A stretch of DNA of 64,000 nucleotides from Psammoneis japonica (GCA_008632985.1 QPGO01000055.1:124001-188000); one strand, 5' to 3'; counted from the stretch's first letter, positions 9,201 to 47,002 are shown. Translations and numbers: made by a program. The notes: a model not told the origin generated them from the letters alone.

Positions 9201-9714
9201 GAAACCGCCGTCAAAGTCTCTTCCGTTCCATACTGCGCAATAATCAGAATGTTTATGTACTGAGACCGCTAGGACCATTTCGTTTGAGATGGGATTGGAC
9301 ACCAAGAACAATCGATTGTTGGTACCACTTTTAATCAAAGAGTCGAAATTAAAATTCTTTGCTCCAGTCAGTGCCATTCCATGTGCGGTAGTAAATCGCG
9401 TCTTGTACACCTTTGTTCCACACTAGCAGTGAAACCCATGCCTCCAACTGTTGTCCGCACTATTGTCTAGAGGCGAGAAAGGGAGATCGTTCCAACGACA
9501 ATCGCTTCATCGCGAGACGGTGAGTACGCACCCCGTGTATTAGTCCATCTGTTTCTTGTATTGGTCTCATAGTACCGAATTCAGAGAATTTCCCACCATC
9601 CCAGAGCGCATAGCCAGGGCTTGCCGATCCGCTGTTTGCCCAAATTGCTATTCCCTCGTTTCTTCGCCGCCTGCAGTGACGAGAAGCGAAATGAACAACA
9701 CGAGACTGCTCCAT
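6298..9714 (-). pseudogene. Fragmented gene for a secreted protein: W-N/D-G repeat region, Pro/Thr linker and HExxH metallopeptidase (M64-like) domain
   Basis: Consecutive minus-strand ORF pieces (9460-9714, 8910-9410, 8346-8879, 7235-7765, 6298-7173) with YALWDG/AVWNG/FWNG motifs, PTxxPT repeats, KINIVFV and HELGHSLFEITDKY. Multiple frameshifts or stops. Confidence 0.55.
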
Positions 9715-9926
9715 GATAAGGAGCCTCTACAGCATGGTATGTTTCGCAGCAGTTCGCATATTGTGTCCCTTTGATACCATGAATAGTGACGTCTATCGTA
9801 CATGGGTATTCTCTTCATTCGTCTTCTCCTCTCCTTCTTCCGTTTGATGTCACCAGAGCACCACGCAACCCCCAGAGATTTCAGATTTGAGTTTGTGACG
9901 GCATGCTGGAAGCTGGAATGCGGCGG

Positions 9927-10134
9927 TGTGAAGATATCATATTTCATACGTCATTACATTATGACTCACTGTCCCAAAAATGACTCATAAACATCGGTCT
10001 TCAATGAGAGACGAGGAGCCTCTCACATCCTCACAATTTTACTACAGCTGTTATTGTAACACCTATTTGATCGCCCCAATACTTACTAGTCATCACTAGC
10101 TACCGCTACTGATCTGCTTTTGAGTATTTAAACA
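9927..10134 (+). repeat. 5' LTR
   Basis: TGTGAAGATATC...TTTAAACA; aligns without gaps to 15921-16128 with 14 substitutions. Confidence 0.96.
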
Positions 10135-10156
10135 CGCTTCCTCTGCGCTAAGTAAC

Positions 10157-11466
10157 ATGTCTGATGCCTCTTCAGACGCTTCGTCCGTTTCTGGACCGGA
10201 GCTAGGAGATGTTCCCGAAGATGTCCCATTTGCATTGGCTCCGGCACAAGTGATCACCACGGTCATCGATTATCGTTCGAGTGCGGGTCGTAAGCTTTTT
10301 GAGCAAGCTGCCAAGCCGCTGGACGAGGAATTGTTCGATTGTGAACCAGGAGACCTGTGCCAGTTCCTCAAGAACTTGGAAGACAGAGCCAGAGAGTTTG
10401 GGTGGAATGATGAGAACGGAGTGTTCATGATCCCAGAAGACCACGAAGACATCCTGGAATCCGAGAGGTCTAATCTGTTGACCGACTGTGGTCAGATGGA
10501 CCCAGAGAGGATCCGGGGCTTTGAAGAATCCTCATCGGTGACGAGAGTCGCGCAGCGCAAGATGCCCATCTAGCGTGTCGCTGCCTGATGAACTCCACAT
10601 CGAAAGCCGGAAAGGATAAAGTGAGGATCTGGGAATCAGAACACAAGATCGGAGATCGCACGTCCGGAAATCTCCTTCTCAAGATCATTGTCAGAGAATC
10701 CCACCTCGATGCGAACGCCACGACGAGTGCGATCCGAACGAAATTGAGTCAACTCGACCTCTGTCTCCCAACGATCGGTCATGACATCTTGAAGTTCAAC
10801 CAGCACGTGGCATTGTTGCTTGCCGCCCTTGAGTCACGAGGCAAAACCACTGAGGACCTGCTTGCGAACCTCTTCAAGGGGCACCTGGCTGCTTCCGACA
10901 AAGTTTTTGTCAAGCACATCGAGCACAAGCAAGAACAGCATGAAGAGGGCGAGGACATGTCGGCGTCGCAACTTATGAACCTCGCGGGCAACAAGCACAA
11001 GAACCTGCTTCAGAAATCGCCATGGAACGCCCCTGGTGCGTCTGAAGAAAAGATCTTGGCTCTCCAAGCTCAAGTGGAGGCCCTCAGCAAGAAATCCCAC
11101 AAGAAGACGGGAAACAAGGGAAAAGACCACGACGCGTCTCAAGGTGCTCAGAAAGACGGGAAGCCTGCGTGGTTGAAGAAACACAGGCGTCCCAAACGCG
11201 ACCAGTTGGCCAACCCGAGAACTTGGAAAGGTGCCGCATGCTGTTGGTGTGAGAAGAGTGCCGGCGGCAAGTGTTCTGGCAAGTGGCGTGTCCACAAGCC
11301 CTCCCAATGTGAAGGCAGAGAAGGCAAGAACAAGCCACAGAAAAACGAGTCTACAGCACCACCCCACAAGAAACAGAAGGGACCTGACGGACACCCACGG
11401 CTCAAGCTCAACAAAGCATGCCAAGCCGCAGTGGACGGGCAGGACTCGGGCGAGGAGTCTCAATGA
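10157..11466 (+). pseudogene. gag: copia gag (frameshift near 10530)
   Basis: ORFs 10157-10573 and 10588-11466 join with a frameshift. Motifs IRTKLSQLD and DLLANLFKG, plus a C-terminal W-C..C.GKWRVH zinc-knuckle-like segment. Confidence 0.85.
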
Positions 11467-11781
11467 CTCCTTGAGCACGGCTGCAGCAGTTGTGATGGAC
11501 ATGGGTTGGAAACCATGGCGTCGAAGTGTTTTGCGATCATCAAGGCAACTGCGCTCTTCGCCTGGCAGGCATTCGCCTGCAACTGCACAACCATTATAAT
11601 GACGTCGCTCTCATTTGAAAACAAACGAGTGATCGAACAAAAGCTGCTAGCTTGTGCTCTAATTTTACTGTCGACAGCGATGGTCCTGATCCACATTTAC
11701 TTCTACGCGACCGACCCCAACCACAAGCCCGGACACACACCGAAACGGAAGAGATGGCACCGGGTACGATGAGGGTGGACC

Positions 11782-14700
11782 ATGCTCACTGAAGGCATGT
11801 ACAAGACAGGGACCAGCATTGAGCAGATTGTAGAAAGCATCACCACTGCCAACAAACCCAGAAGAGGGAGAACAATCAAGATCCAACGTGCCGCAACAAA
11901 GGTGAAACCCAGACAGAAGAGGCGAACATGGGGCTTGATTATGGCGCTAGCCATGGTGGCCATGCAAGCCGAAGGGAAACACATAAAAGAGCACACCGTC
12001 ACGTTTGACACCGATTCTGGGCCAGTCGGAGTGGACAACAGATGTGCAGGTTGCATGTCCGACCGAACAGAAGACTTCATTGGCGAGCTGAGAGACACAA
12101 GAAGAACCATCAAGGGATTCGGTGGCTCTCGAACTACAGGTGTGAAAGTTGGCACCCTGCTGTGGAGATGGAGTGACGATGAGGGAAAGACACACAAGTT
12201 CGCAATCCCCAACTCATTCTACGTACCTGACGGCAAGGTCCGCCTGCTAAGTCCCCAACACTGGGCAAAGGCACTGAGAGACAACAAGCCGATCGAAGGA
12301 ACTGGATCAAAGACAAACTCGAAAGAGGTCACACTGTTCTGGAACCAACGAAAGCATCGACTGACTATGCCGTTGAGCGAGACTACGAACGTAGCCACCT
12401 TCCGCTTAGCACCGGGTTATCAGAAGTTCGAAGCATTTTGCGCCGACGCGGACATCGATCCAGCGAAAGAAGTGGACGATCCTCTCCTTGCACAAGATGC
12501 AGCAGTTGTCAGTGATGACGAGGACGAGGAAGAGACGGATGTCCAATGCGATGCAAAAAGCATCGCCAAGGAATGGCAACCTGAACCCCAGGAGGTGGCG
12601 CAAGAGACAGGGTTGGCTGCCGATCAGCGCGTCCACCCACTGGGAGCAACGTTTGACATAAATGGGCCAACAAGCAGTGGCAACTCAGAGGGAGCACCGA
12701 CTGCTCCACCGCCACGAGTGGTGGAAGATGAAGAAGACAGACAGCCAGATACGGATGCGGCGCTGCTCCTCAAGCACCACCAACAATTTGGGCACATTGG
12801 CTTCACAAAGTTGCAATGGATGGCAAAGATGGGCATTCTACCAAGACGGCTCGCAAAGTGCAACGTGCCTGCTTGCTCGGCATGCCTGTGCGCAAAGGCG
12901 ACCAAGAGAAAATGGCGCGACAAGGCACGGAACGATGATGCCGAGATAGAAGCTCCAACAAAACCAGGCCAAATTGTCTCAGTGGATCAATTGGTGTCTC
13001 CGACACCGGGTCTAATCGCACAAATGACGGGCTTCTTGACCACAAAACGGCACAAGTGCGCCACAGTCTATGTCGACCAGCACTCCAAATTGGGCCACGT
13101 TTGTCTGCAAAAGACAGCAACGGCAGCTGAAACGTTAGAGGGAAAACAAGCTTTCGAGTTGCATGCAAAGAGTTGTGGCGTGACCGTTCAGGCTTGCCAT
13201 GCTGACAACGGAACATTCAAGGCCAACAACTGGGTGCACACGTGCAGGAGACAAGGGCAACAACTGACGTTCGCTGCCGCAGGCGCTCATCACCAAAATG
13301 GCACAGCAGAGCGACGGATCCGAGAGCTCCAAGAGCTCGCCCAAACAATGTTGATCCATGCCAACAGCCGCTGGAAGAAGTGCATTGCCACAAATTTATG
13401 GCCCTGCGCGATTCGCATGGCCTGTGACGCCATCAATCATGCGCCCAACCTCCAACACAAAGACCGATCAGGCCCACTCCAGCTGTTTTCCAACACGAAA
13501 GTTGCCACCAATCCAAAGCACTGGAAACCATTGGGTTGCCCAGTGTACGTGTTGGACTCCGCATTGCAATCAGGTCTGTCGTGTCACAAATGGAAAGACA
13601 GATCAAGGGTTGGAATGCACTTAGGCCGAAGCCCACAACATGGCAAGAACGTGGCCCTGGCACTCGACCGAGAGTCGGCACTATAAAAGCCGGGTTCGTT
13701 GCTCAGAGGGAGACAAAAGGAACCAAGAAGAGTGGCGAGACCAAAACGGCTCCCACAAGTGCTCCGGATCGTCCCAAGAAGAAGTGCGCACGAGCTTCAG
13801 AGGGAGCGGGGCAAGGCAAGAAACGAAGAACCATTCGTTGGGCTGACCAACTAACACGGCCACAAGATGGCGATGCTGCAGCAACCGACAGCCAATCGGT
13901 GTCCGAACGAGAGATGCGCCGAGAGCCCAATCACAACAAGGCCAACGCATCCGAAAGGACTGAATCTCTAGAAGCACCTCCACATGAGGGCGAGTCTGAT
14001 CAAGCATGAGACGGTCATGCTGAACCAAAAGTGACACGATCAGGGCGCAAGAGCCAACCGGTCAGCAGATTGATTGAGTCCATGGAGACTGAGATCAAGA
14101 AAGACACTGAAGGAGGCGTCGACGGAGAACTGCTGTGCTTGGCCGCACTGCATCCTCGAGACTCGCAAGCCCTCCAAGAAGAAGTCGCAAATCCCCTCCT
14201 TGCCTGCAAAGCATCAGCAGATCCTGACACCATGTGCATGCACCAAGCCATGAAAGAACCGGACCGCAAGGAGTTCCTCAAGGCGATGCAAAAAGAGGTG
14301 AAGGATCAAATGGAAAATGGAAACTGCTCCATCATTCCAAGATCACAGGTGAAACAAGACAGAAAAGCACTGCCTGCAGTGTGGCAAATGAAGCGAAAGC
14401 GAGACATGCGCACCCGAAAGGTGAAGAAGTGGAAAGCGCGACTTGACATTGACGGCTCGAGGATGAGAAAAGGAAAAGACTACGATGAGACGCATGCGCC
14501 GGTTGCATCACGAAATTCAATGCAGCTGCTGCTTGCCTTAGCAGGAGCACATGGGTGGCATTCAAAGCAACTGGATTGTGTCCTCGCTTTTCCTCAAGCA
14601 CCGGTCGAAAAGGATCTCTACATGGAGATTCCGTCCGGATTCGAGCTCGAAGGCGCCAACACCAAGGATTATGTCCTGCGCTTGCATCGGAATGCACACG

Positions 14701-15851
14701 GGCAGAAGCAGGCAGGGCGAGTCTGGAACAAGTGTCTCGTGGACAAGTTAGTCAACAAGTTGGGTTTCGAGCAATCCAAGGTCGACGAGTGTGTGTTTTA
14801 TCGCGGAAAAACGATTTGCCTTCTCCACACGGATGATTCTTTGCTCGTAGGCCCTGATGAATCTGAGATCAACAAGATCATAGAGGAAATCAAGCAAGCA
14901 AAGTTAGATGTCACGGTGGAAGGCGACGTTCAAGATTTCCTTGGCATAAACATCACCAGAAAGTCGGATGGAACGATGCACCTGACGCAACCCCACCTGA
15001 TCGACCAGATTCTGAAAGACTTGCGACTTGATAAACCGAGTGTCGTCGGAAAAGACACACCTGCAGCTTCATCCAAGCTCCCATCCAGGCATTCAGAATC
15101 AAGACCATTTGACAATTCCTTCAATTGCAGGTCGATCATCGGCAAGCTGAATCACTTGGAGAAATGCACCCGAAGCGACATCGCGTGCATTGCGCACCAG
15201 TGCGCGAGATTCACTGCAGACCCGAAGGTAGAACATGGCGAGGCCATGCGGTGGCCAGGCAGATGTCTGTATGTCACGAGAGACAAAGGTGCAATTCTGA
15301 AACCAGATTCCAAAAAGGATTTGGAGGTGTACGTAGACGCTGACTTCAGTGGCAATTGGGATCGAAAGGAAGCTGCGAGCGACAGAGATGCCACAAGATC
15401 CCGTCACGGGTGTGTCATCACTTACGCTGGTTGTCCCATCCTTTGGAAGTCTCAGCTACAGACTGAAATGGCGTTGTCCAGTGCCGAAAGTGAACACACC
15501 GGATTGTCGTATGCCTTGCGAGAGGCCATCCCTGTGATGGAAATGTTGAAGGAACTGAAGTTGCGAGGGCATCCAATCAACTCGACGACGGCGAAGATGC
15601 GCTGCAAAGTTTTTGAGGACAACAGCGGCGCTCTGGAAATGGCGAAGGTACACAAGTGCAGACCGCGCACCAAGCACCTCAACGTGAAGCTGCACCATTT
15701 CCGTGACTGTGTCAGTCGAAAGGAGATCTCAATCCACTCTATCGACACCACTGCACAATTGGCCGATTTTCTAACTAAAGCGGTCAATCTGGACGTTCTG
15801 CTTTGGTTGCGACCGAAAGCAATGGGTTGGTGGGTATTTGAAATACTTTAA
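11782..15851 (+). pseudogene. pol: copia pol (protease, integrase, reverse transcriptase, RNase H), disrupted near 13685 and at a stop at 14007
   Basis: Protease-like GVDNRC; integrase HQQFGH..CSAC, VSVDQ, HADNG and HHQNGTAERRI; RT KARL, GQKQAGRVW and LLHTDD; RNase H VYVDADF, FEDNSGA, RTKH and QLADFLTK. Confidence 0.95.
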
Positions 15852-15920
15852 AAGTGGATTCGCGCGCAAAGTGCGTCAAACCTTCATTTTCGAGATGCAT
15901 GAGATCAAAATGAGAGGGAG

Positions 15921-16128
15921 TGTGAAGATGTCACATTTCATACATCATTGCATTATGACTCACTGTCCCAAAAATGACTCACAAACATCGGTCTTCAATG
16001 AGAGACGAGGAGCCTCTCACATCCTCACAATTTTACTGCAGCTGTTATTGTAACACCTGTTTGATCGCCCCAACACTCACTGGTCATCACTGGCTGCCGC
16101 CACTGATCTGCTTTTGAGCATTTAAACA
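15921..16128 (+). repeat. 3' LTR (TpA-mutated copy)
   Basis: Same length as the 5' LTR and immediately follows the polypurine tract. Confidence 0.96.
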
Positions 16129-19100
16129 CGGCGGGACTCGGAAAAAGTCACAGGAAAGCTCATGCCGGCACCGGCAAAGAAGCATCAAAGCCCCCGTTTG
16201 AGAGAGACATTTTTGTTGTGTTACAGCACAAATGACTGCATGATCGAGCAAGTCATTCAGGGCACCGGACGTTGTCCTGAGGCTTCGCACCAACGCTCAA
16301 CAACTGACAGCGCCATTTTGTTGATCCCACCACCACACAAATTGCGTGTTTGAGCGCACCTCACTCTTCTCTTGCTGCAGCGGGCATCTGAGCCTTTGTT
16401 TTGCAAGAACACCACATTTGGCATGTCATCAGCTGGGGTCTGTTTTTGGGAGGCATCAAGATCAGCAGCCGGCGCCCTGTGTGTGGCAAAAAAAGTGGCA
16501 GCATCGCGAGCAAGTGTGGGCACAGGAGATTGGTTTGGTGGCAGCTGAGAATGAGGCAGCTCAAGATGAGCTCTGGCCCATCATCACACAAGCACAAGGG
16601 TGATGCCACACCATGGCTCTCACGTGCAAAGCAGCAGCCGTTTGGCTCCAAAGAACATTTTGAGACTTTGAGAAAAAGACTGCAGCAGCTCCACCCTGAT
16701 GTTTTAACTCTGGCAAGTGAAGTTCATCAACCAGCTCTTGGTGTGTGGTTGTTGAGCTGGCAAGTCAATGTCACCAAAAAGGGAGCCCCGCCAGGCTTGT
16801 TCCTGCGCCACTTGTTGTGCTTGACTTGGTGATCTGCAATGGCTGTCGGGGTTGCCAAAAGTTGTCAACACAAGTGCAAACTTGTGCAACAACCGGTGCC
16901 TGCCAACACACCAAATGACCAACCAAATGATTTGCTCTAAAGAGTGAGATGAAAGTCAAAGGTGGGGGGTTGATGATTGTGAAAGCCTTCTCACAGAGAG
17001 TCTCCCAGCAAACCACATCAGGTTTTAAAATGTCTTTCCTTCAACACGTCTGGGTGCCTCACAATGTCTGTGCGATCCAATTGCTCCAACAGCAGCTCAA
17101 GAAAAAAGAAGCAGTCAAACAATGTTGATGCAATTTTGCTGGTGCAGCTGCTGCCCCTGGTGCAAAATTTTTGGTGAACAGAAGCTCTCCCTTTCATGCC
17201 TCTGCTCTGGGTTGACTGCAGAGATGCAAGGCATGGAGTGTGAAAGCTCAAAGGTCATGTGACTTTTGCACTGATTTTTCTTTGTGGATTGTGCAGTGCA
17301 TGTTCTTGGCATGGAAGAGGTGGAACTCTGTTGGAGCTTTGCATGCATTGTTGCTGTCAACTGCTGTTGCTGTGCTGGCTGGGTGCAGAAGCTGAAAAAG
17401 AGCACAAGACCCACAACTCAAATCAAGTTGCAAACACAAACTTGCCACATTGACAACAGTCATCAGCACATCTTTCCACTGCAACTTTTTGTCTGTCTGT
17501 CCTGGGAAAACTGCCTCTGAGACCCCAATGTTCTGGCACACTCCTTTGCATGAGAGCGACCTCTCATGTGCACCAAGCAAAGAAGGATGACACTTGGAAT
17601 CCCTGCCACCCAACACCATGTTGACTGGTCTGCATCACACAACTCCACCAACGAATGATCATTGTGGGGGCAATCCTTTCTCACATGCCCAGCTTTGTTG
17701 CATTTCCAGCATCTGGGCCAATCTGCGTCTTTTTGCTCTGCACAAAACTTGTGCCATCATGTTTCTTGTTGGCTCTGTGGTGTCCAACACCTGCAAGAAT
17801 GCCTCCTCAGCTAAATTGGGACAAATGTCAACCCCCAATGTGAGCTGCCGATGCAGGTCTTTCAATGCATGCCAATGATCCTTGGTGCCTTCCACTGGCA
17901 TCACTGCCAACTGTTTGTTCCTTTCTTCTTCATTCCGGGTGTCATCAGCATCCTTGCTGAACCCATCTTCTTTCTTGGCAGTTTCTCTTGGGAAGATCCT
18001 GCCAACTGCTTCCAAGCCTTGACTGCCTGGACATGTGGGGTTGTCTTTTCTCATTTGCATTGAACAAGATCAACTTGAGAACATCCAGCAGTGCTGTCAC
18101 ATCCCAGCCTCCTTTGTGACTCTGGTGAACTCCATCACTCCTTCTGGTTTGTGACAAATGGCCTTGCCTTCTCACATTGCCCCATGATGACATCAAATGC
18201 CCTCGCCTTCCATTGCCCACAAGACTCAAAACGTGTTGTGAGCATTGCTTCTCACAAAAAGAGCAGAGCCCGATGGTCAGCGTGAAACCGTGGCATGTCA
18301 GTGCCTCAAAACTGGATCAAATGGAGATGACAGGCAAGATGTTCCCTTGACTTGGTGGGACAATGGCAAGGAAGACAATTGTTGTCAAGTGTGTTGCTGA
18401 AAAGATCTGTGAAGATTCCATTGTTTTGGCTGTCTGTCCTGTCAACTCCTTTTTTGTTGACAACGGCATTCTCCGAGTGTCAACTTTTGATGTCTAGATT
18501 TTTTGACAGGCGCCAATCTGGCATTCTGACAGGCTGCAATGCGTCCACGGGTCTGACCATGTGGCACTCAGGTGATGGTTTCCCGTCAAGGCAAAAAGTC
18601 CTTCTCCTTGATTGAAGCAAGCTTTGCTTCTCTTTGTTTCTTCGCACTGTGCGTGGAGGTTGCATTTCATGTGTTGGCACCATGAAGTTTGACCTTGCCT
18701 TTCTTCTCAACCCCAATGAAAAGTCGTCCTTCAAAAAGTTTGTGAAACATTCCATGTCAAAGCCCCATGCATGCTCCTTGGAGGAATCAGAAAACTGGTT
18801 TCTCATTCCGATGAGACGGGTGGAGGCAATGACCACAGTGCCGGCATCTTGGGAACTTTGCGGGGACTGCTCGATCAGCCAGCATTCCTCTTCCAAGTTC
18901 TCACATCCCAAGAACACAGTCGGAGGTTCAGCTCTCTGTCAACAAGGAAGCCGCTGAGCAACGAGATGCTCAGATGTTCCACAGCCACAGAGTGGTGTCT
19001 CAATCGGGAGATGATGTCTTTGGTGGCACCTGTGATTCTTCTGTGGTCAACTCCCAGCAGAGGCCCTGGGGGTCAGCCTGCTGGAGGCCCACTGGGACAG

Positions 19101-19908
19101 CCCACCACTCTGTTGCCACCCAAACACAGAAGCTGCTGATGAGGAGATGCCATGTGACAAACGAACACTGCACTCCAGCGCAAGTGGACAAAGAGCAGCT
19201 CCTCTTTGAGACTTCCCCACCAACTCTTTCCTGCAGGAATGCAATGGAAACCGTGCACTCTTTAAGGGAATGTGTCACCACCACAAACTCGCATGCGGAG
19301 ACAAGATTTAAAAGGTGGTTGCGAAGATTCTGGCAAATTTCATGTCGACTGCGATCTGCTGCTGCATCTTTTCAGTGCATCAGACCCAAGACTCTGCGGC
19401 AACACCCCGATGCCCAAATGGCTCCCTTGTTGCCACAGAAAGATGAGGAGACAAAGAAACAGAGATGAGGAATTTCCAACAATCCGTGACAGAAAAAAAA
19501 TGGAATCACTGCATTTCCCACTCTCCGCTGTGCTTTGTCTGATTGCCACACTCTGGATGTTTGTCCGCAAACTTCTTGCATGCACGAAAGAGCTCCCATC
19601 CTGGATGGGCAAGGAGCATGTGCTCTGGGTTCTCATCAGGATCATCGTTGGGATGGGCATCTTCATTGGCATGCTTCATGACAATCCCCACACACAAGCA
19701 GATTTCCGACTTTCGAAGCTTGTCCTTGAGCTTTTCCTCCCAATCACCACAGGCGTCGATGAGGCTTCATAGTTTGAGGTGGTTTTCTGCAGGAAGCTTC
19801 TTCTTCTTTTGCGTCGATTGGTGCTGTTTCTTGGTTTCTGGTTCCTGCTGTGACGCAAGACAACCCTCCATCTCGGCGTGGCGCACCGCGGCTTCTTTCT
19901 CACCGGAG

Positions 19909-20166
19909 GCCTGTTCCAGCTCCAGGTGCTCTGCTTTTCAACACGTGAGAGGCCGATTTTCTGCGCAGTTCAGCGCAATTAACTCCTTCAATTTTGATTG
20001 TTTCGAAAATCGAAAGGTGAGTGTACACCCGAAAACACATGCAAAGTGTACACTCACCCTTCGATTTGGCAAAAAACGGATTTGGAAAAAGTTAATTGCG
20101 CTAAATGCACAAATTTCCAAATGATGGGAATCGAACCCGCGCGGAGCACCTGGAGCTGGAACAGGC
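19909..20166. repeat. Imperfect ~260-bp palindrome, probably two transposon ends back to back
   Basis: GCCTGTTCCAGCTCCAGGTGCTC (19909-19931) pairs with 20144-20166, AGCGCAATTAACT pairs with AGTTAATTGCGCT, and AAATCGAAAGGTGAGTGTA (20007-20025) pairs with TACACTCACCCTTCGATTT (20049-20067). Confidence 0.8.
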
Positions 20167-20675
20167 CCGGACAACAAAGAATCCGACACGCTGCTCGCAG
20201 TGGAGGGCAATGAATGTTCCGGGGGCGGGTCCGACGGGGGCGGGTCCGAATCGGATTTCCATTTGGTGCGCAATGTAGGCTGCGTCGTTGGCTGCTTGAG
20301 CAAGGTTGCTGTTTTCTCTTCTCCAACACGAGCATTGATGTCTGGTGCACCCGCGACCTTGGAGCAGTCTGGCAATGCATCCGCAGACTGTGCTGGAGGG
20401 GTGGCCATTTGCGTCAATGAAGTTTGTGTCAAGGTCGTACGCACTGGAGGACAAAGTGTCAAGTTCAAGAAAGTGTTGCGTTGTTGCTGTCATTTGACGT
20501 GTGATGCACAGACGTTGTTGACTCGCTGTGATGTCAGTTCATGAACAATTCATTCGCGCCATTTTCGCTCCATCCCCACTGCAGTGCACACAGCACATGA
20601 GCCACCCCTGTGCAAGGGCTGCTGTGGGATGCAGGTGGGTGTGGTGCATTGAGCAACAACTCCCATCCCATGGCA

Positions 20676-22635
20676 CCCCCAATTCTCTGGCCACGAAACA
20701 CTGAGGGCAGGAGTTGACCATTTTTCACCCATTCTCAAACCACTCCACCATGATGACACGTCTCCTCCTTCGTCACCAACAAATTGCCAGGACTCCATTC
20801 CTGCTGAAGTTGTTGACATTGACGCTGATGCAAGAGGTGAGACTGTTGCTCCAGCTGTCATGTGCCTCACACAGCACCCCAAACAAGAACATGCAAACTC
20901 ACGCTGTTGTTTTCATGCTCTGCTGCCTGCTGCCTCCTCACCTCCCACAGGTGATGCCCCCTGTGCAAGAACACCATCCCTGCATTTCTCGCCACTGCCA
21001 TGCCTGATGCTGTCAATGTGCAAGGCATTGGGCAAGGTTGTGAAGACTGGGGCACACACCAAGAAGGGCCTCAGTGTCCTCATTGCTCTGGGAGGTGCCA
21101 CTTGCTTCTCACTGTGCACACAATGAGGTTGCATTCCTTGCGCTTGGAAAGGCAAGTCTGATGGATGTCAAGGCACACAGATTTGAAGAATGCGAGCCTC
21201 ACTCTCTCACACTTTTGTGCGTCCTTCTTTTCAATGGGTCAACCCGGTTGCCCACACTGTCAGAAACATCGTCAAGCATGCCGTTGCTGTTGTTGCCTCA
21301 GCCATTGCATTCAAGACCCCCATGAGCACTGGCTCCATTGTTGGATCATCCACAGCTGTTGCTGGTGCACTTTTGCATTCTTGCTGTGAATGCTTCAAAG
21401 GAGAAGAAAGAAGAAGCCAGAGCAGAACATTGTGGAACATTGTTTTGCACATGACAGACTGCGCCATCACGGAGGACAATGCTGTCACTCCGTGTGGGAT
21501 GACACCAACTGCTGGAGCCATCAGCAAAACAATGACTGCTTTCTTGTTGTGCTCACTTTCTGCACATGGTCATCAAAATCATTTTTGACAATCTCCCAAA
21601 ACCAGGCAACCGTCTTGCTCTTGTTCCCCTTGTTGTCTTCCCATGGACCCGGGTGTGTTGTGTTTGCTTCCCAATCATCCTGTTGCAGATGTTCAAAGCA
21701 ATGGGAAAACCCAGGACAGGTGACTGGAAATTGTGCATTGATCAAAAAGCGCTCGGCACATTGCTCGTCCGAGGATGCAAAGCAGGTGGTCATCAGAACA
21801 ACAAATGTTGGGAACCGTGTTGGGTGTGCTGGTCACAGGAGGGGCGGTGACTGGGGAGCAAGCTGCTGCAGCTGCGCTGTGCTCAAGACAGTCATTTGAT
21901 GCCATCATGGGTGCAAGCTGCTGGAGCTGCACAAGACAGTCAGTGTCATTTGATTTCACCACATCCGTCCTGATGATCTGTGGGGGCGCAACCAGCACTG
22001 CGGTGCACTGGAGTGTGAAAAAGAAACAGTGTGAGTCACACAAGGATCACAGGTGTTTTTGGAGCACAGCAGCCACAGAAACATCCTTGCCTTTCAAAAT
22101 GGGTGCAGTGGCATCAGCACTGGGTGCACCAGTCCTGTGAAAGGCAGGCAATGTGCTGGCATTTGGGGCAGTGTCTGTGGCAGGTGCTGCCACATGAGAG
22201 AAACAGCGTCAGTTTGCAGCACAACATTTTGGCGGTGTTTGGCAAAAGAGAGGCAAAGCAACAACATTGCCTCTTGTGTCCATTGCATTGGGAACAGTGC
22301 AGGGTGTGGCACTTCCAGGATGTGGAGCCACGGTGTTGTCATTCACAACAGAAGCTGCGGCAGGCACTGGAGTGTGAGAAACAGAGTGTCCACAAACAAG
22401 CTCTAATTTTGGAAGCAGCAGGCATGCGATGGCCACAGAAATGACATTGCCTGACACACCAGAGTCATCATGGACTGTGTCAACAGGCGCCGTGTCGTGG
22501 CAAAGTGTTCATGACGAATCACTCAACATCATCATGGTGAGTTGTTGTTGACGTGTGTCATTTGTGTGTTGCGCAACAAGAGGCGAAAAATGGTTGAGTG
22601 CTGCCCTCAGTGTTTGGTGGCCAGAGAATTGGGGG
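20676..22635. mobile_element. Putative non-autonomous TIR DNA transposon remnant (~1.96 kb)
   Basis: ~55-bp inverted repeats: CCCCCAATTCTCTGGCCACGAAACACTGAGGGCAG... at 20676-20730 and its complement at 22581-22635. No clear TSD and no transposase recognised. Confidence 0.6.
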
Positions 22636-25600
22636 AGAGCATGGATCAGGATTTTCCCTGACACTGTGAGAGAGTATTTGTGCACAAATGCCAAATTTCG
22701 TCAAATGACACCACTGCACAAAATTTTGGATGATGTCTAAATCACATCACCATGCCATCACATCCAGCCACACTGCACTCTTCCCTTGCACAGGGGTGTG
22801 CATGAGCCAGTCTATGTGGAGGGACCTCATTGCTGAACCGTTTGACTGGAACAATTTTTTGCACGTTCGTCCGCCACCCCACATTCCTTGTGCTTGTTGC
22901 ACGAGAAAAAAGATTTCGACCATGGTGAGCAAATCGTTCACGGTGGTGTCAATGTTGACAATCGAGTGGCAATCGCATTGGGAGAGTCTTTTTAAACCCC
23001 ATTGGAAGCATCTGGCACAGCAATCGCTGCTCAAATTTTTCCTTTGGAGGCTTTTTTTTCCCATCCACTGCTTCTCATGCATTTTCGCTGTCGTTGCCTC
23101 TGTCCCAATCGAAGGTTGCGAATGCCTCTATGACCAAAGCACATGAAGGTTGCATGCATTCTTTGAATGATTCAATGCAAGTGGTGGTGTGGATGGAGTT
23201 GCCTCCGGATGTTTGTGCTTGTTGGTCAAGCACACCGCCGTGCTTCGTGCTTTTGTGTGGCAAGAACATGCCAATGACAAGGGTGATTGTTCGGTTGCAA
23301 CTTCGTCAATGTTTTAATTTGAGAGGCAAGCACACATAAAATTTGTTGATCAATCCCATGTGAAGGATGTCAGTGGGTGATTGCCTCTCAAACTGTTGAT
23401 TGTCACACTTTTGCTGATGCTTTTTTTGCTCACCATTGAAATTTCTGCCGCAGGTGCATCGACCGGCAACGCCATTTCTGAGGTTCAAGTGGGAGTGCAT
23501 GAGATGCAATCACGTCTGTTCACTTGCATGCACACAGCAGATGACAGGGTGAGGTGTCTGGCTTTTTGGGGTGGTTCCACATGAGCAGAACAAACACAGA
23601 TCCGCCTGGAAGTGGTTTGCCAGAGCCGCCCAACTTGACAAGCAAATCGACTCGGACTGCAAGGAGATTCATTGCATGTTGTTGTCAAATCAACAGTGCC
23701 TTGCAAAGCATTCTCCATTGCAATGATCATGGGTGGTTGGAATGAAAAGCAAAGCTTGGCAAGCACTTGAGATGCCGGAAAAGCTGTTGGGCTGGAGGTT
23801 GTGACGGACCTGTCTGGTCGGACCAAAGCAGCAGACGAAAGTCTCTAAGTTGTGCAGCGCCTCTTAGAGATTTTGTTGGCAATGCATCACATGTCCAAGC
23901 TGGTCATCTGGGGCTCTTGAGCTGGTTTGTCTTAGAAAGTGATGCCAGCTGCTGGTGGGGAGCGGGCCCTGCCTCAGGAGACGTTTGACTTGCGCAACAA
24001 AATTCTCGTCTGCACTTCGCTTCTCTTCTGATTCACATTCTTTCCAAAACAACAGGCAAGAAGACTTCACCCTGACAACAAAGACATTGAAAACAATTGA
24101 TTTTGTGAGCATGACAACAGAAAATGTCACAAAACTTGCTCTCAAGTTCTCACCTGACAACAAATGCTCCGGCATCTGACTCATGATCGGAAGCATCAAA
24201 AGTGGTGCTCTCATCAAAATTTTGCCGCGCCTCTTTTCAAAACAATTAAAAAAATTCATCTTGACCAAAATTCATTGAAGCAGGGAGATTCGGGCAACTA
24301 AAACTTCCATCGAGTTCCAACTTGGACAGGCAACATGTGGGATTTGCACGTGTCCTGCATGTTTGCAAGTGGGAAACAAGATGTTGTGGATTGATTTCAA
24401 TCAAAAAAGTTGCATGTTGCAATGAAGCAAAGAATGTGTGACAGTGACACAATGTCTCGTTGAGAACAAACTCACTTGTTGCCACCAGAATTGTCAGGTT
24501 TTCATCATGGTCGCGCACAACTTCTTTGGCTGCATCAAGTTTTGAGAGTGATGACGTCGACGATGTAATTTTTTGCACAGTGTTGTGGTGCAAAATCTGC
24601 GCATGACGTCAACAAACCAAGCCTGTGGCTCCAGCAACCCCTGGCTCATGTCCCACGAGGTTTGGGAGGGCAGTTCACGTGCCAACCTGGTGCCACATTT
24701 TCAAACAGGTTCGATTTTAGTGGCGTGTGTGTGGGCTTTAGTTGTCGCAGGGTCCAGAGAGTTTCCACATGCATGTTTTGCATCTTGCACAGATTGCACT
24801 CTGTTTCACATGGTGACTGCCATGTTCCTTCCCCAGATTGCTGTGTCCTTCTCTGGTGCAGTGCTTTCCAATGGATGCTCCAGCTCTTTTGGGTTGTTTT
24901 GCTTTCTTGCCTCAGAGACACCAGCACCTGCATCTCCAGCTCAAACATTCTTCCAACATGCTTGCTGAACTTGCTTGCTTGTGATTTCCATGCAACCATC
25001 TGCCTGTCATCCCAACTCAGCAATGGCGCCATGTGCCCACTCCCTCAAATCTTTTGTGCTTCCACACTCAGCTGTGTCCTTGCACAAAATGCTTGCCACA
25101 CCCTCCTTTGGCAGCAGACCCTTGACAGCTTCTTCAATGGCAAGGCCCTCCAGAGATTGTTTCTTCACTCTTGTCCGGCTGGCTTGTTTGCTGCAATCTG
25201 CTGACATGTGGTGTGCCCTTGGATTCCTGTCAACTTCCCAGCCCTTGTCCTTTGGAATTCCTCTCAACTTCCCAGCCTTCTGATGACACCACTCCTTTGA
25301 GCATTGTGTCATGCCTTTTTGGCTTCTGTGCATCTTGGAGCATTGAAGCTTGTCAACTGGCACATGCTCAGTCTTGCTGACTCCTGACTCACCATGTGGC
25401 TTGCAAACACACCTCCATTGCCATTGACCATTGTTGCAGTGTCAACTGGGTGCAAAAGCTAAAAAGTGAGCACAAGATCCACAACTCAAATGAGTTGCAA
25501 AAGCAAACTTGCCACATTGTCCACAATCATCAGCACATCTTTCAACTGCAACTTTGTCTGTCTGTCCTGCAAAAACTGCCTCCAATCCTGATGTTTCAGC

Positions 25601-27563
25601 AGCAGGAGTGCACAGCTGCCTTGAGGTCAACAGTTGATTGCAAAATGGAGCACAGCCATGAAGTGGGCTTTTCGTTGATGTTGTCATTTTTGTTGTTGTT
25701 GAGAAAGGGTCAGCTTGATTTCATCACACCCAGAGTCACAAGTCTTGAACCCCATGTCATGACCTGCTCAACACTCGAGCTTGTTTTTTGAGCCACCAGC
25801 CAGACTTTGACCCCCTGCCAGAGATGGAAACACCCAAGATGTGGGCATTGATGGTGTGCCAGACTTCAAACCAATGTCTTGTGTGAGAACAGATTGGGTT
25901 TGTGTTGTTCATGATGTGAGGTGTCAGAAAACACAGCCAACTTTTTGTGGAGCACACCACAACTGGCCTGACCAGCATGAGTCCACTTGCAACCCCAAAG
26001 GTTGTGTTGGGAGTTTTGCACCAGCATGTCACCAGTGTGTTGTTTTCTCTTTTTGTCAAAAATGGGGGTTTTGTCACCATGATCTCCAAAGCACTGGCCA
26101 TCACTCATCAAGAAGGGGGCCACATTCAAACCTCCAAGAAATGCAACAGCAGAAAGATTGCTGCATGCAGCAGGGAGCTTGATTTGCCGGAAAGTGAGGG
26201 AGGGGTCGTCCAGGACTGGGAGATGAGAAAAAGAGCACTTGACGATGTGAAGAGTCGGTTGTTGGGAATGACATTTTTCACATGTGGAAACCATGCCAGA
26301 TCTTGTGCAGAAATGCTGATGCATGCAGCAAATGGAAGACAGTCAACTGGTGCCAAAGGAAGGCTTGCACTCACACTCATCAGAACCACAACAGAAGCAG
26401 CAGCCACTTTCACCACATGTGGTGAAGGACTTGATTGGCTGATGGGGGAATGAAGAGAGTTGTTGAAGAAAGATGAGCATGGGCACAAGAAGCTTAGAGA
26501 TTTGACAACACAACATTCATCAGTGGTGTTTGCTGAAGCACACAGAATTTGAACTGAAATCCATGTAGAAAATTTCTTGGATCTGCAGAAAACAACGAAA
26601 AAGATCAACGGGCATGCGACCCACAAGGAGTCGACACCAGTCATTTTCCACTTAGTGGCACTGCTCAACATGATGAAATGAGGGCATGCCATGGATGGAA
26701 ATGGCCAGAATGGTCTTGGGAGACCCAGCAAAATGCCATCTGAGAAAGGCGACATCAACTTCTGGTGGGTGGCTGCTGTGGGGATTTACAGCACACTGCA
26801 AGAAAGCAGCAAGTGAGCCCTTTTTCAAGGAAACATTCTGGCATGATTTTGCCAGTCATGTTCAAATGGTGGTTCCATTCACATCTGTCGTCACTTGGTT
26901 TTTGTCCCCCCTTGGAGCTGATTTCCAAAATGTGTGAGCCTCAATTTTCCTGCACACTCTGTTGGGTGCAATCTCAAAGGTCAAGACATTGGCTGTGATT
27001 CATCAGTTCTTGTCCTTGAATGACTTTTTCTTTCTTGGGCTGTGGCTTGATTCCATTCAGACTAAAATTAAAGCCAAGATGCTCCGCTTTCCAAGACAGC
27101 CCAGGAAGACTTCAGTGCACTCCTCCATGCTCGGCAGGTTCTTTCTGGCACTTTCCCACACCCTTGCAGGGGCATCGTGTTCTGCATCTGTTTTTGAAAC
27201 ACCAAAGCATCAAATTGCCACCAAAAGTTGTCGGGAACTTTGCATTGGCATGACATCCTCAGTGGGTTGATTTGCGTTTTTTGTTTGTTTGAAAACGGGG
27301 GTTTTGTGATTGCACGTGGCACCACAACGGGGTTGGTCCTCACTGCGGCGCCCGCGTTGCAAGTTTGTCGAACTTCGACGCGAGCACCGCGATGCGATCT
27401 GCGCGATCTCTTCGATCTTTTTTATTGTATCTCTTTCACCGCACCAAATTTTCGCGATATCTTTTGTGGATATTTTGCTAGCAAGTAAACAACTCACATC
27501 GCTTCTCCTGTCGCAGCGACTGAGAAATAACCACAGATACAATCATAAGCATAAGGATCAATC

Positions 27564-29285: not shown

Positions 29286-30180
29286 TTATGTGGTCGTGTA
29301 TAGTGTCAACGCTGCCTCTAGTTTATTCGGCTTGAAATCTTCTTTGCTGGGTGGAAGCATCTCCTTTCGATTCTTCATTCTCTTGCGGCGCGAGTGCCAG
29401 ACGCAAAAGCCACCAATGATCAACAATGCAAAGATGCCACCGAGGATTGCTCCAACAATGACTCCAGTGTCGCTGTCATCACTGCCATCTGCATCACTGG
29501 GAGGTTGCATGGGAGACCTTGCAGTGGGTCCATCTTCAATCAGAACACCATGTGCCACAATGTTGCTCCCCACAGAGAAGGACTTTCGCTGATTGCAGCC
29601 TGCAATGTTTCAGTGTCAACAAGGCACTCTTTTTGCTTCACTGTCACCAGGGAGATGTCACACAAACAGGGTCAACAAAGGCTGCAGCTGGAGCATGGGC
29701 AATGGCCCCTGCCTCTTGAAGGAGCCTGCAGTGCCTGGAGGTTTCCAAAAATGATGTGTCAACCACAAACGACTCAAAAAGTCAGAAAGAAAGAGATCAA
29801 AGAGGTGGTCAGAAGTCATCAATGTGAGAGTGCAGCCTCATGTGCATGCATGGCAGTGAACCTCAAGACAAAGTCTTCAAGCTCAACCCATGCAGGAAAC
29901 AATGGCTCTGTTGAAGGATTCATGGGAGGGCTGGCTGGCAGTTTGAGAGCACGCAGCTGGCTCTGAAGGAGGGGGGATGTGTTGTTGTTAATGTGCTGAA
30001 GAGCCAGTCAGAGGGCCAGCAGTGGCTGCACAGAGGCATCTTGAAAGCTTGCTCCTCAGCACTGCCCCCTCCCCAACAACAAAAGGGCGCCACTGGTTGG
30101 CCAAGCATCAGCTGGGTTGTTGCACACAGCCTCTGCTGCTCTCCCACATGGTCAGCCACCAGACTTGTTCCAGCCGCACG
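29286..30180 (-). pseudogene. Degraded gene for a single-pass membrane protein (TpA-depleted block 2)
   Basis: The C-terminal piece reads GVIVGAILGGIFALLIIGGFCVWHSRRKR (TM helix plus basic stop-transfer). The upstream part is broken and lacks TpA. Confidence 0.5.
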
Positions 30181-30689
30181 TGAACCAAATCGTGCACAAA
30201 AACGACATTTGCGCGATTTTTGCGCGGTCCCTAACTTACGATCGAACTTTCACCACCAAAAGTATAGATTTATACAAAATATAGGGCCCTAAATGTTTTG
30301 CAACACTAACAAGACTCGTGTGAGTGTTGCAATATCATTGTTATTGTGCCATCTATGTTTTTCATTGCGTTAAAAGATTCGTAACACAACGGATGATTTT
30401 CGGGGAAAATATTGCCGTTATTTGGATGTTACCTAAATATATCTTTCTACGACGATGCTTGGTAGGTTTTCTACCTACAAAGAAATCTCAGTATAAATCC
30501 ACTGATGTACAATCAGTATTGAGTCTACTGAGGAAGTTTATGATACATATCCCATGAGGATTTGAATACCACTCAAAAAACTATTTAAGTGTTCATACTC
30601 TAGAAGCCTATAAAAGTCAATCCGTCTAAGTATTTTTTATTAAAATGCTATATACACTCAAATATACATAAATTATGTTCAAAATCCGA

Positions 30690-31330
30690 TTGTCGTTTTG
30701 TGCGTCACCTGGGACTGGAACACGTCACCAGTGCCTCCCATGCCTTTGTTTTCTTGTTGCTTTGAAGCCAGGTGTGGCCATTTGTGCAAGGCAGTTGGTT
30801 GAGTGTGGGGTGCATCCGTGAGACAGCAGGCAGTCTTCGCCAGGCGTGATGTGCCATCAAACAATCAACAAGAAGGGAGCCACCTCTTGAAACTTGTGCT
30901 GGCTTCCAAAGTCCTTGTCCACCAGTGTCAAGAATTCAACTTGTCAAACCAAGTCAGCATCAAACCTGTCATGAAAGCCCTCTGCCTCATGATGCCCCCT
31001 TTCACACCAGATCATTAGGAGAAATCGCGATGAGTGCTGGTGAGAGCATGTCACACTGTTCTTTTGCACTGCACTGCTTTTTTGGAGCTTGCGTGCAAAA
31101 CAGATGCACACGTGCAAGTCATGGCAACACAAGCTCACTCCAACCGTTGGTCCCAAAATGAGCCCTTTGTCTCTGTGGCACGTCTCCTTGCCCACACAAA
31201 GCACACCTCGAAACGTGGCATGTGTGCTTTTTGTGGGGCTCTGCACCACGCTCCTCGTCCTCTCCAACATCATGCAAAAGCTTTCGCTGCAGCAAGGAAG
31301 AACCCAGTGGCCACTTCAAATTCACACAGC
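30690..31330. other. TpA-depleted block 3
   Basis: Nearly TpA-free and TG/CA-rich; no recognisable protein. Confidence 0.75.
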
Positions 31331-33273: not shown

Positions 33274-34160
<887 letters not shown>

Positions 34161-35179
34161 ATAGTGAGGGGATCGATTCGGTATGGATTAGATAAATTGT
34201 AGTATGACTCGTTTAGCGCAATTCATTACTAAACTACCGGTGTATGCTAGTCTTAATTATGGTGGTTTTTACTTGTGCGCCTAAAGTTCAGTTTCGCTGG
34301 ATTTCACAACGATTGAATGCTTTCTGTTTAGAAAAAATAGAGTAGGTAAGACTGACGAAATAGCCCAGATGAAGCTAAAGCAGCCGTTTCGCACACTTAC
34401 AGATTGAGAATCTCATCTGAGTTCATAGTAGGCTACAGACCTGGTAGAATTTTGAAGCAATACCGCGACACATGCGATTGTGACTTAGGCCCTAGACATG
34501 CTCTATGTACCTACTCTCTCGAGCAAGCTTAAAAAAGCTATACTGAACTAGCAAAAGATTCTTCCATCAGTCACAACGTCGGAACTGTTTCCGGTGGTTG
34601 AACTTCCCATAATTTTAACTGAAAACATAAAGTGAGCGAAAATCAATAATGTTGGAGTAGGCTAACCAGGCTAACTTTGGTCTCGTCGATACTCTCTAGG
34701 CCCTAGTTTAGGCTAGAGCAAGGTCGAGCCATCGGCATCATAGGAAGCTTGACGTCAATACCATACGACCATTTGTCTCGTTTAATCTAGAGAGTAATGC
34801 ATACCATAAGTATTATTTCAGTCGTACATGTATTTCAGTCCCACTGAAACTCAGGTAATTACCGGTACTAAACCAATCGATGAAGTACAATCTACAATCC
34901 TTGAATACACCGGTACGATGTCTCAACACACCGAGGAAACGATACAGCCATGCGAAACGCAATCAAATTTCAAGGAGCGTTTGCGATTATTAGAATTACA
35001 GTAAAAACTAGACTAGCTAGACCATAACTAGAGAGCATCTTTCACTCCCTCTAGAAAAGGGATCTAGCATCGTGTAATTAAAAGGGAAAAGACCACCCTT
35101 TTTCCAAAACCGCCCAAATCACTAACGCCCCCTAAAATCATAACTTACAAACACCTTGTCCTACTTACAATCCTTACGC

Positions 35180-46350: not shown

Positions 46351-47002
46351 CTAGATTTAAGAATTTAAAACCTTGACTGACTGTGCTCAGCTCAATGTAG
46401 ATGTCGGGCAGCAGCCATTTTGAGAGAGGACTGTGTTTGTGCTGAACCACAGAAGAATGGCAAACACTCATCTTTTGTCTCTAGAGGGCAGAAGCCAATT
46501 GTGCAAGATCTCGTAAATCAGACAAGCTGCAGTGCCTCAGGCTACCTTGCATCTTCTCTCTTAGCAGAGCACACTCTTCTTAGAGGCATTCCAGCTCACT
46601 GAAGTAGATCCAATCTAAATTTTAATGTGCTAGAGGAGAGAGACTCCTTAATCCTCAATCTCGTCCTGGAGGCATTCGAACTCACGGAAGCAGACACTCT
46701 GCACCTCGTTATTGTCGAGAGGAGAGTGGCTCCTTAGTCGAGACTATTTCACATTGCATCAGTGACACCACACTGTAGAGAGAACTCTGGACGGGGCTAC
46801 CAAGAATGTGCAAAGGTCAGACTAATTCAAAAGGTTCCATTTACAACAGCAAAGCAGACTTTCCCGACGGTGATCCATTCGTTCACAACAACGATACACA
46901 ATGTGAACTATTAAATCTTTCTAGATCTTGCCAACAACCAAACTTTAAGCTTGAATCATCATGGCTTCCAAGGAAACAAACTACCAGAACTACTCCGCAC
47001 GA

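Follow-up and report, generated by a model that had tools for sequence, protein, structure and literature searches.

Near-complete loss of TpA from repeat blocks of a diatom genome points to a repeat-directed mutation process

Introduction

What could remove one dinucleotide almost completely from a long stretch of DNA and yet leave its GC content nearly as it was? The question is raised by 64,000 nucleotides (nt) of the genome of the diatom Psammoneis japonica (GCA_008632985.1, QPGO01000055.1:124001-188000), referred to here as the window, in which some 11 kb next to a Copia-type long terminal repeat (LTR) retrotransposon contain hardly any TpA. The initial annotation of the window read this block as the end-state of a mutational process, and took from the few surviving TpA and from the two LTRs of the retrotransposon a preference for particular flanking bases. 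Here we combine dinucleotide counts, protein alignments, sequence from the organism's own sequencing run and database comparisons to ask what happened to TpA, where and in which direction. We find that TpA has been converted to TpG and CpA in chromosomal DNA, and we argue that a repeat-directed mutation process is the likely cause.

TpA and CpG are exchanged for TpG and CpA

Counted in 1-kb intervals, the region 16001-27000 holds 41 TpA in 11 kb, with observed/expected (O/E) ratios of 0.00-0.12; elsewhere in the window the ratio is 0.37-0.96. The counts and coordinates of the initial annotation are all reproduced on recount, including the two TpA within the 600 nt at 16141-16740, which stand at 16222 and 16705. 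Four blocks, A to D (Table 1), share this depletion. Block A has 39 TpA in the 11,170 nt of 16131-27300, and the four blocks together have 60 in 19,323 nt, where about 787 would be expected from the host sequence of the window (1436 TpA in 35,272 nt), which is our control throughout. The TpA density of the blocks is 0.076 of the control density and their TpA O/E is 0.05; 92-98% of TpA is gone. The CpG density of the blocks is 0.34 of control, with O/E values of 0.07-0.63 across 16001-27000 and as low as 0.05-0.07 in some 1-kb intervals. TG and CA are raised, to an O/E of 1.5-2.1 in the same region and up to 1.5-2.2 across the blocks. Background intervals have a GC content of about 0.48 and a CpG O/E of about 1.0; in the blocks the GC content is 0.45-0.53, barely shifted.

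Expressed per kb, from control to blocks, TA falls from 40.8 to 3.1 and CG from 57.2 to 19.5, and the density of TG, like that of CA, goes up from 70.8 to 110. The sum of these four pyrimidine-purine (YpR) dinucleotides hardly moves: 239.6 in the control, 236.9 in the Copia element and 242.6 in the blocks. Because this sum is constant, the change consists of TA to TG/CA plus CG to TG/CA, a closed exchange in which two of the four YpR dinucleotides gain what the other two lose. AA is not depleted (O/E 1.26 in the blocks versus 1.15 in the control). The borders of the blocks are sharp, within 100-200 nt, and the AT-rich host spacer at 34001-35000 has a TpA O/E of 0.96.

Conserved tyrosine codons set the direction of change

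Dinucleotide counts leave the direction of this exchange to be fixed by other means, and the Copia element at 9927-16129, nested close to the left border of block A, supplies them. We aligned its open reading frame (ORF) for reverse transcriptase (RT)/RNase H with 40 homologues and its integrase ORF with 26 longer ones, and call a tyrosine column conserved when at least 70% of the homologues have Tyr there. At the 27 such columns over the two ORFs, the element of the window keeps Tyr 7 times and has Cys (TGY, where Y is a pyrimidine) 12 times, His (CAY) 7 times and Trp (TGG) once, against 436 of 487 residues kept at conserved columns other than Tyr (Fisher p=2e-13). Further replacements are those that TA>CA or TA>TG changes would be expected to give: Leu to Pro (CCA) twice, Ile to Met (ATG) and Val to Ala (GCA). 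As a host control, the adjacent RRB1-like gene, aligned with 60 homologues, keeps Tyr at 8 of 8 columns and 209 of 223 conserved columns overall.

Since the Tyr columns of the homologues fix the starting point, the change went from TA to TG/CA and not the reverse, and it is not RIP (repeat-induced point mutation) of the classical kind. These alignments fix the direction. They also rule out selection for avoidance of TA and CG, under which the element would not have lost conserved Tyr from its own enzymes. GC-biased gene conversion is ruled out as well, by a GC content that has not moved and by changes that fall at TpA only.

The changes arose in the chromosome, on both strands

Both LTRs of one insertion are identical when they are made, and any difference between them therefore dates from after insertion. 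The 209-nt LTRs of the Copia element differ at 14 sites. At 13 of these the 5' LTR has TA and the 3' LTR has TG (7) or CA (6); the remaining one is a CpG to CpA change in the 3' LTR, and no other position differs. The 5' LTR keeps 19 of its 19 TpA and the 3' LTR has lost 13 of 19, which corresponds to about 1.15 events per TpA site; the 13:0 split has p=2.4e-4. The changes consequently arose in the chromosome, at the level of DNA, and on both strands. A hand count of strand runs among the 13 events along the LTR gives 8, where 7.5 are expected, so there is no strand coordination. As a whole the element is in an intermediate state, with TpA at 0.30 of the control density and CpG at 1.02.

Survival of TpA depends on the flanking bases

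Among the 60 TpA that survive in the blocks, 19 are TTAA, 21 are CTAA/TTAG and one is CTAG, a total of 41, against 266 of 1436 (18.5%) in the control (binomial p=4e-17). The ten survivors singled out in the initial annotation (16705, 17026, 19263, 19309, 22993, 24247, 44094, 44815, 44963 and 45162) are all TTAA. Its description of the kept contexts as mainly TTAA, CTAA, TTAG and CTAG is thus borne out as a group; CTAG by itself shows no visible protection, on numbers too small for a verdict. The block/control ratio of TpA density is 0.50 for TTAA and 0.31 for CTAA/TTAG, then falls to 0.07 for GTAA, 0.05 for GTAC, 0.04 for ATAG, 0.03 for CTAC, 0.025 for CTAG, 0.018 for ATAA, 0.008 for ATAC and 0 for ATAT.

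Two simpler accounts, which the initial annotation had itself raised, fail on these data. Uniform depletion over NTAN contexts relative to the control is rejected (likelihood-ratio test, 2dLL=90, df 3, p=2e-19). The blocks' own base composition does not explain the TTAA/TAA excess either: there, the probability that A follows A is 0.32 and the probability that A follows TA is 0.57 (chi2=57, p=4e-9). With survivor contexts non-random and composition insufficient, the flank preference holds.

The preference is captured by a model in which the A on each strand survives independently, according to its 3' base. Fitted to the blocks, the survival per side is 0.72 for A, 0.31 for G, 0.13 for C and 0.05 for T, a loss order of TAT>TAC>TAG>TAA, and the model predicts the ten context classes acceptably. 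For CTAG it expects 3.9 survivors where one is seen, which shows no visible protection and is too few to judge. Protection extends to position +2 (A at 57% vs 26%, p=1e-12) and weakly to +3.

Contexts of the same kind can be counted in the Copia element. Our recount of the 13 LTR changes gives five at TAT, four at TAC, three at TAG and one at TAA, in agreement with the earlier tally of nine TAY, three TAG and one TAA; TTTAAA is, as had been noted, retained in both LTRs. Per hand-counted opportunity, the LTR hits are 5/11 for TAT, 4/10 for TAC, 3/8 for TAG and 1/9 for TAA. In the Copia Tyr-codon set the hits are 6/9 for TAT, 11/17 for TAC, 1/3 for TAG and 1/4 for TAA. Pooling LTR and Tyr codons gives 26/47 at TAY and 6/24 at TAR, where R is a purine (p=0.023).

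Loss of CpG is a second, separable process

In the blocks as a whole the loss of TpA and the loss of CpG are equal, at 37.7 per kb each. Elsewhere they come apart. In the Copia element TpA has been lost with CpG kept, and the converse is found at 46001-47000, where the CpG O/E is 0.35 and the TpA O/E, 0.40, is near background, and at 30001-31000, with a CpG O/E of 0.56 next to a TpA O/E of 0.66. The two depletions are therefore separable. The initial annotation had not remarked on the loss of CpG or on the gain of TG and CA, and its end-state needs qualifying in so far as the TpA and CpG losses separate.

Survival of CpG has a flank dependence of its own, from 0.74 of control density for GCGC and 0.58 for CCGG down to 0.24 for TCGA. 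CpG flanked by A or T is lost fastest in the blocks. The marks of methyl-CpG decay, CpG to TpG/CpA changes and a low CpG O/E in repeats, are present in the blocks. Diatom transposons are described as CpG-methylated via DNMT5a, and loss of DNMT5a in a model diatom as removing methylation and de-repressing young transposons (PMC9998398). We take the CpG half of the pattern to be ordinary methyl-CpG decay. Such decay is ruled out as the whole cause, given that the loss of TpA is equally large and occurs without CpG loss in the Copia element.

Repeats are hit, sister copies independently

The Copia element is multicopy: in the organism's own sequencing run its word depth is about 190-910 (260-860 in most bins), against 60-97 in its flanks. 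The element and a fragment of a translocator pseudogene (below) are hit and the adjacent single-copy genes are not, and in the window the process appears confined to repeats; the 5' LTR, though equally repeated, is spared.

To see the other copies, we compared k-mer contigs from the same run with the Copia element at 80% likeness, which yielded 489 pieces. Changes among the copies comprise 164 transitions and 50 transversions. Of 214 variant rows, the 40 that were listed are compared here, all of them outside the LTRs. Among these 40, TA in the window stands against TG or CA in another copy in 5 cases and the reverse holds in 4; the window has TG/CA against CG in another copy in about 10, and TG and CA doublets face each other in 7. 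Conserved Tyr codons within this set are informative: those at 13618 and 14826 are CAC in the window and TGC in another copy, the one at 15264 is TGT in the window and CAT in another copy, and the one at 15153 is CAC in the window and still TAC in another copy. Because the same Tyr codon has become TGY in one copy and CAY in another, sister copies were changed independently.

The run also bears on the assembly itself. Over 9500-9955 and 16047-16600, k-mer contigs built independently show not one difference from the window, at a depth of about 62-67. This agreement excludes an artefact of the assembler or of polishing, and on the same ground a basecalling artefact at modified bases is ruled out.

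Contents of the blocks and of the window

A Pfam scan of stop-free ORFs of at least 75 amino acids (aa) took in 149 from the regions of the four blocks (77 from block A). Just two of its matches relate to a repeat or a gene, one to a zinc knuckle and one to the C-terminal end of a triose-phosphate translocator (Table 1); weak, sub-threshold matches are DUF5560 in block A (21696-22046, minus strand) and TM_ErbB1/DUF3149 outside it (29289-29609, minus strand). A tblastn search with 120 Copia proteins found no match in the 19 kb of blocks, the nested Copia element being the sole match in the window.

The translocator fragment has Cys or His where its diatom homologues have Tyr in the tblastn alignment, Ile to Val replacements, and an intron-like gap that contains stops. 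As it carries the signature, the process also reaches duplicated host sequence, beyond the genes of transposons.

Self-comparison by BLAST in a purine/pyrimidine alphabet gave mostly chance matches at 73-80%, from which three pairs stood out. The pair 17348-17538 and 25415-25601 within block A has a nucleotide identity of 86% and a purine/pyrimidine identity of 94%; for the pair shared by blocks C and D (41060-41338 and 52234-52506) the values are 68% and 86%. In both old pairs TG-versus-CA doublets make up many of the differences. Around a near-palindrome, the sub-region at about 19900-20450 is less mutated than the rest of block A and its CpG is near normal; 7 of the 39 TpA of the block, including all three GTAC, lie at 19980-20438. 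Either this sub-region is younger, or something protects it.

On either strand of the blocks there are frames of 211-291 aa that contain no stop and match nothing in Pfam. Long ORFs of this kind are false, arising because TAA and TAG stops disappear, and are likely to be miscalled as genes.

The 100 nt just upstream of the Copia element (9826-9925) have 0 TpA where about 4 are expected, and 9426-9825 is normal. This is suggestive of a left stub of block A at 9826-9921, at a length of only 100 nt. The window is of eukaryotic type, and its long host ORFs encode an ankyrin protein, an Rce1-like protease, a DUF501 protein, an RRB1/RBBP4-like WD40 protein, a kinase and the N-terminus of VPS13. Among named relatives, those that match the RRB1-like ORF best come from raphid pennate diatoms (Mayamaea at 65%, then Epithemia, Cylindrotheca and Nitzschia), and the one that matches the Copia RT best comes from Fragilaria.

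Table 1. Coordinates of features in the window, counted from its first nucleotide.
Feature	Position	Strand	Remarks
Probable left stub of block A, severed by the Copia insertion	9826-9921		TpA absence
Target-site duplication GGCGG, left copy	9922-9926	+	same 5-mer at 16130-16134
Copia 5' LTR, unmutated	9927-10135	+	19 TpA; direct repeat, 93% identical to 3' LTR
Copia internal region	10136-15920	+	gag/integrase/RT-RNase H pseudo-ORFs, partly mutated; Pfam gag_pre-integrs, RVT_2
Copia 3' LTR, mutated	15921-16129	+	13/19 TpA changed; polypurine tract just upstream
Target-site duplication GGCGG, right copy	16130-16134	+	matches left copy
Block A	16135-27300		mosaic of unrecognisable repeat remnants; 39 TpA in ~11.2 kb
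Old repeat, copy 1	17348-17538	+	partner 25415-25601
Gag zinc-knuckle remnant	17466-17756	-	Pfam zf-CCHC, E=3.6e-5
Near-palindrome, 260 nt	19908-20167		inverted-repeat arms 96% complementary over 27 nt and 77% over 60 nt
Triose-phosphate translocator pseudogene fragment, plastid type	21010-21429	+	Pfam TPT; C-terminal ~100 residues; diatom TPT homologues
Old repeat, copy 2	25415-25601	+	partner 17348-17538
Block B	29400-30000		short, TpA- and CpG-poor; 1 TpA in 601 nt
Block C	40850-46200		14 TpA in 5,351 nt; CpG O/E 0.05-0.52
Old repeat common to blocks C and D	41060-41338	+	partner 52234-52506
Block D	50900-53100		6 TpA in 2,201 nt
Stop-free frames, no Pfam match	18833-19468(+), 24569-25204(+), 26126-26785(-), 43599-44378(-), 50714-51508(-), 51225-52100(+)

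The signature in other sequences

Whether the same signature occurs elsewhere can be asked of database proteins. We scored 120 homologue clusters at 22 Tyr columns, with a median Tyr retention of 0.91. Three of them, predicted proteins in other public data sets, bear the signature: P0059 has Tyr at 1 of 22 columns, with Cys at 11 and His at 7; P0010 has Tyr at 14 of 22, with Cys and His at 4 each; and P0108 has Tyr at 16 of 21, with Cys and His at 2 each. Intact relatives of P0059 at 79-82% identity are found in marine metagenomes (L001-L004), and the codons of L001 can serve as a proxy for its ancestor. Relative to these codons, 54 residues of P0059 are explained by a single TA>TG (26) or TA>CA (28) change, at rates of 22/31 for TAC, 21/30 for TAT, 9/18 for TAA and 2/20 for TAG. 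TAY is hit most (43/61), followed by TAA and TAG (TAY vs TAR, p=7e-5), and the preference for TAY over TAR is therefore reproduced in a second family. Judged from their residues, database proteins such as P0059 appear to be products of this mutation process.

Four metagenomic Copia loci (L070, L077, L079 and L045) have a TpA O/E of 0.30-0.46, a CpG O/E of 0.09-0.29 and TG/CA at 1.44-1.67. No clear Tyr to Cys/His replacement is seen in these four, and they may be mild or different cases.

In open-access papers and bioRxiv we found no description of TpA to TpG/CpA hypermutation of transposons, and the passages searched of two diatom papers contain nothing relevant to it (PMC2806351, PMC9998398). 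As far as these searches reach, host hypermutation of mobile DNA is a known category, and the base and the context are new, as presumably is the enzyme.

Discussion

Taken together, these observations make it likely that a repeat-directed process in this diatom genome mutates TpA to TpG/CpA, by A:T to G:C changes on either strand of the TA site. As read here, the process acts on chromosomal DNA after insertion, with hits spread about evenly over the two strands and not grouped in strand runs, at a rate far above background mutation. A purine on the 3' side of the A slows it, most strongly at TAA(A); given this slowing at TAR, a reaction near completion leaves mostly TTAA and CTAA/TTAG. A second, separable process turns CpG into TpG/CpA, as expected of methylated CpG in diatom transposons. 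As by-products, Tyr codons become Cys or His codons and TAA and TAG stops vanish, with GC content barely moving. From the pattern in the DNA we infer that a dedicated enzyme drives the loss of TpA. As to the chemistry, our leading guess, and a tentative one, is that adenine in 5'-TA-3' is deaminated to hypoxanthine, a base that pairs as G. Among the ORFs of the window of at least 200 aa, a Pfam search found no deaminase match.

Several points weigh against this reading. First, the enzyme is a putative one; A>G at TAY and T>C at RTA describe one event from opposite strands, and no strand asymmetry that would separate them was found. Second, the 5' LTR is untouched although depleted DNA lies on both sides of it, which a simple model of repeat recognition fails to explain; its promoter may be protected, the targeting may be co-transcriptional, or gene conversion may have been at work. 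Third, the flank rule varies. The order TAY>TAG>TAA given in the initial annotation is that of the blocks, and in the P0059 family TAY again exceeds TAR, but the order of the last two is reversed there (TAG is lost more in the blocks of the window, TAA in the P0059 family), and the LTR contexts taken alone are not significant (TAY vs TAR, p=0.31; TAA vs the rest, p=0.13). The expected contexts, moreover, come from host sequence and not from the true ancestors of the blocks, and the process may itself alter the flanks. Fourth, 79 related metagenome loci, a set that left out the contigs of P0059 and P0010, have neither strong depletion (TpA O/E 0.30-0.90) nor Tyr to Cys/His replacement, and generality therefore rests on the three database proteins P0059, P0010 and P0108. 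Finally, the sequencing run may come from the source sample of the window, in which case it is independent of the assembler and not of the DNA or the individual.

Alternative explanations

The alternative that fares best places the chemistry on the other base of the dinucleotide. A dioxygenase of the TET/JBP type would oxidise T in the TpA of silenced transposons to 5-hydroxymethyl- or 5-formyluracil, and mispairing of the oxidised base with G would give T>C; the flank rule would then read RTA > CTA > TTA. TpA being palindromic, all the sequence evidence fits this equally well. Precedents for the target exist, base J in the telomere repeats of kinetoplastids and 5-hydroxymethyluracil in dinoflagellates both occurring preferentially at T before A, and 5-formyluracil causes A:T>G:C transitions. 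Near-total conversion, however, needs a strongly mutagenic intermediate, and nowhere does the sequence favour T over A. The literature searched, in the excerpts it offered, gives no sign of modified thymine or of such an enzyme in diatoms, and among the matches listed, which were mostly on dinoflagellates, modified thymine in diatom DNA was not found. We regard thymine oxidation as unlikely, though it deserves to be kept in view.

A second alternative dispenses with targeting: TpA would be hypermutable throughout the genome, and the blocks would be its only neutral DNA, genes and spacers keeping their TpA by selection. The background TpA O/E is indeed already low, at about 0.55-0.6, and compact diatom genomes leave little neutral host DNA. 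Uniform hypermutability across the genome is contradicted, however, by the 13:0 split between twin LTRs, in neither of which any position outside TA and CG changed meanwhile, and the sharp block edges and the TpA-rich spacer at 34001-35000 speak against it too. We consider it very unlikely.

Third, an ADAR- or ADAT-like enzyme might edit A in UA of transposon RNA, the edits being fixed by retrotransposition. A>G after a 5' U or T is a known habit of adenosine deaminases, and the best-studied element of the window is a retrotransposon. Yet the LTRs were identical at insertion, so their 13 differences arose in place; both strands are equally hit (7 TG against 6 CA changes in the LTR, and 12 Cys against 7 His codons in the ORFs); and the translocator pseudogene fragment, probably together with the 100-nt flank upstream of Copia, is hit as well. 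AA is undepleted, unlike the relaxed preference of ADARs for U and A alike, and the changes fall neither on one strand nor alike in both LTRs, as ADAR hyper-editing would have them. RNA editing is thus extremely improbable; editing in place of the DNA strand in RNA:DNA hybrids would fall under the repeat-directed process that we favour.

Error-prone repair, in which mismatches from deaminated methyl-CpG recruit a Pol eta-type polymerase whose A>G errors fall at nearby WA motifs (W is A or T), as in the second phase of antibody hypermutation, would link two depletions that coincide in the oldest blocks, but is scarcely credible, because Copia lost 70% of its TpA density at normal CpG, so that TpA loss does not wait for CpG loss, because CpG loss with near-normal TpA exists at 30001-31000 and 46001-47000, and because Pol eta prefers both TA and AA, and AA is not depleted where nearly all TpA is gone.

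Implications

The repeat-directed process, if it is what the window suggests, could be a diatom genome-defence mutator with a new chemistry, directed at 5'-TA-3' in transposon chromatin, turning A:T into G:C on either strand, and carried out by an adenine deaminase that naturally acts on chromosomal DNA or by a thymine-modifying enzyme; to this extended proposal we give belief and doubt in equal measure. Such a mutator would be a kind of 'reverse RIP' that destroys Tyr codons while it erases stop codons, and a second, independent layer of transposon inactivation beside CpG methylation. Transposon-directed hypermutation has so far been C-to-T chemistry (RIP, APOBEC); removal of TpA through A:T>G:C would add a second chemistry and imply a new enzyme, and if that enzyme were an adenine deaminase acting on native double-stranded DNA it would be of interest for base editing. 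There are consequences for annotation as well. Mutated elements escape repeat finders that work by similarity, and the false ORFs of 200-290 aa that the blocks contain in either orientation can be mistaken for genes. Two simple diagnostics are applicable to every stramenopile genome: how Tyr stands in ratio to Cys plus His where Tyr is conserved, and whether TA and CG are low with the YpR sum unchanged.

Comparison with known systems

Methyl-CpG decay accounts for the CpG to TpG/CpA half of the pattern. It leaves TpA alone, whereas the TpA loss of the window is faster than the CpG loss and separable from it.

APOBEC/AID and ADAR resemble what we see as host deaminases that fill mobile elements with context-dependent transitions. 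APOBEC/AID enzymes, however, change C on one strand during reverse transcription, and the substrate of ADAR is RNA; either kind of editing leaves the two LTRs identical and its changes in strand-coordinated runs, whereas the window has changes at A:T pairs, random alternation of strands and LTRs that differ.

Deaminases of the TadA and ADAT2-3 type, including the A-to-I mRNA editing of the sexual stage in filamentous fungi, would share with the window A>G changes, a near-obligate 5' T/U and a preference for a 3' pyrimidine, their motif being the U-A-C of the tRNA anticodon loop. The initial annotation had drawn the same parallel. The order of loss by 3' base, T>C>G>A, is a loose fit, the 5' T is obligate by the very definition of the pattern, and context alone assigns no enzyme. 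These enzymes act on RNA loops, and the substrate in the window is chromosomal DNA, on both strands, over long domains and near completion; to our knowledge, no natural activity of the TadA/ADAT family on double-stranded DNA has been described. The link to TadA is an analogy only.

RIP, a premeiotic process known from Neurospora and other ascomycetes and dependent on RID/DIM-2 (RID being of the DNMT4 type), is like the process in the window in producing transitions at the level of DNA, in repeats, on both strands and with a dinucleotide preference, in continuing until copies are unrecognisable, and in also hitting duplicated pieces of host genes. DNMT4 enzymes related to RID are reported from many diatoms, with function not established (PMC9998398). 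The outcome of RIP is a different one, since its C:G>T:A changes, mainly CpA>TpA, yield DNA that is AT-rich, rich in TpA and filled with stops. None of these marks is found here, where TpA stands at 0.076 of its control density: the change in the window is A:T>G:C, it removes TpA and stops, it keeps GC at about 48%, and it has spared one LTR.

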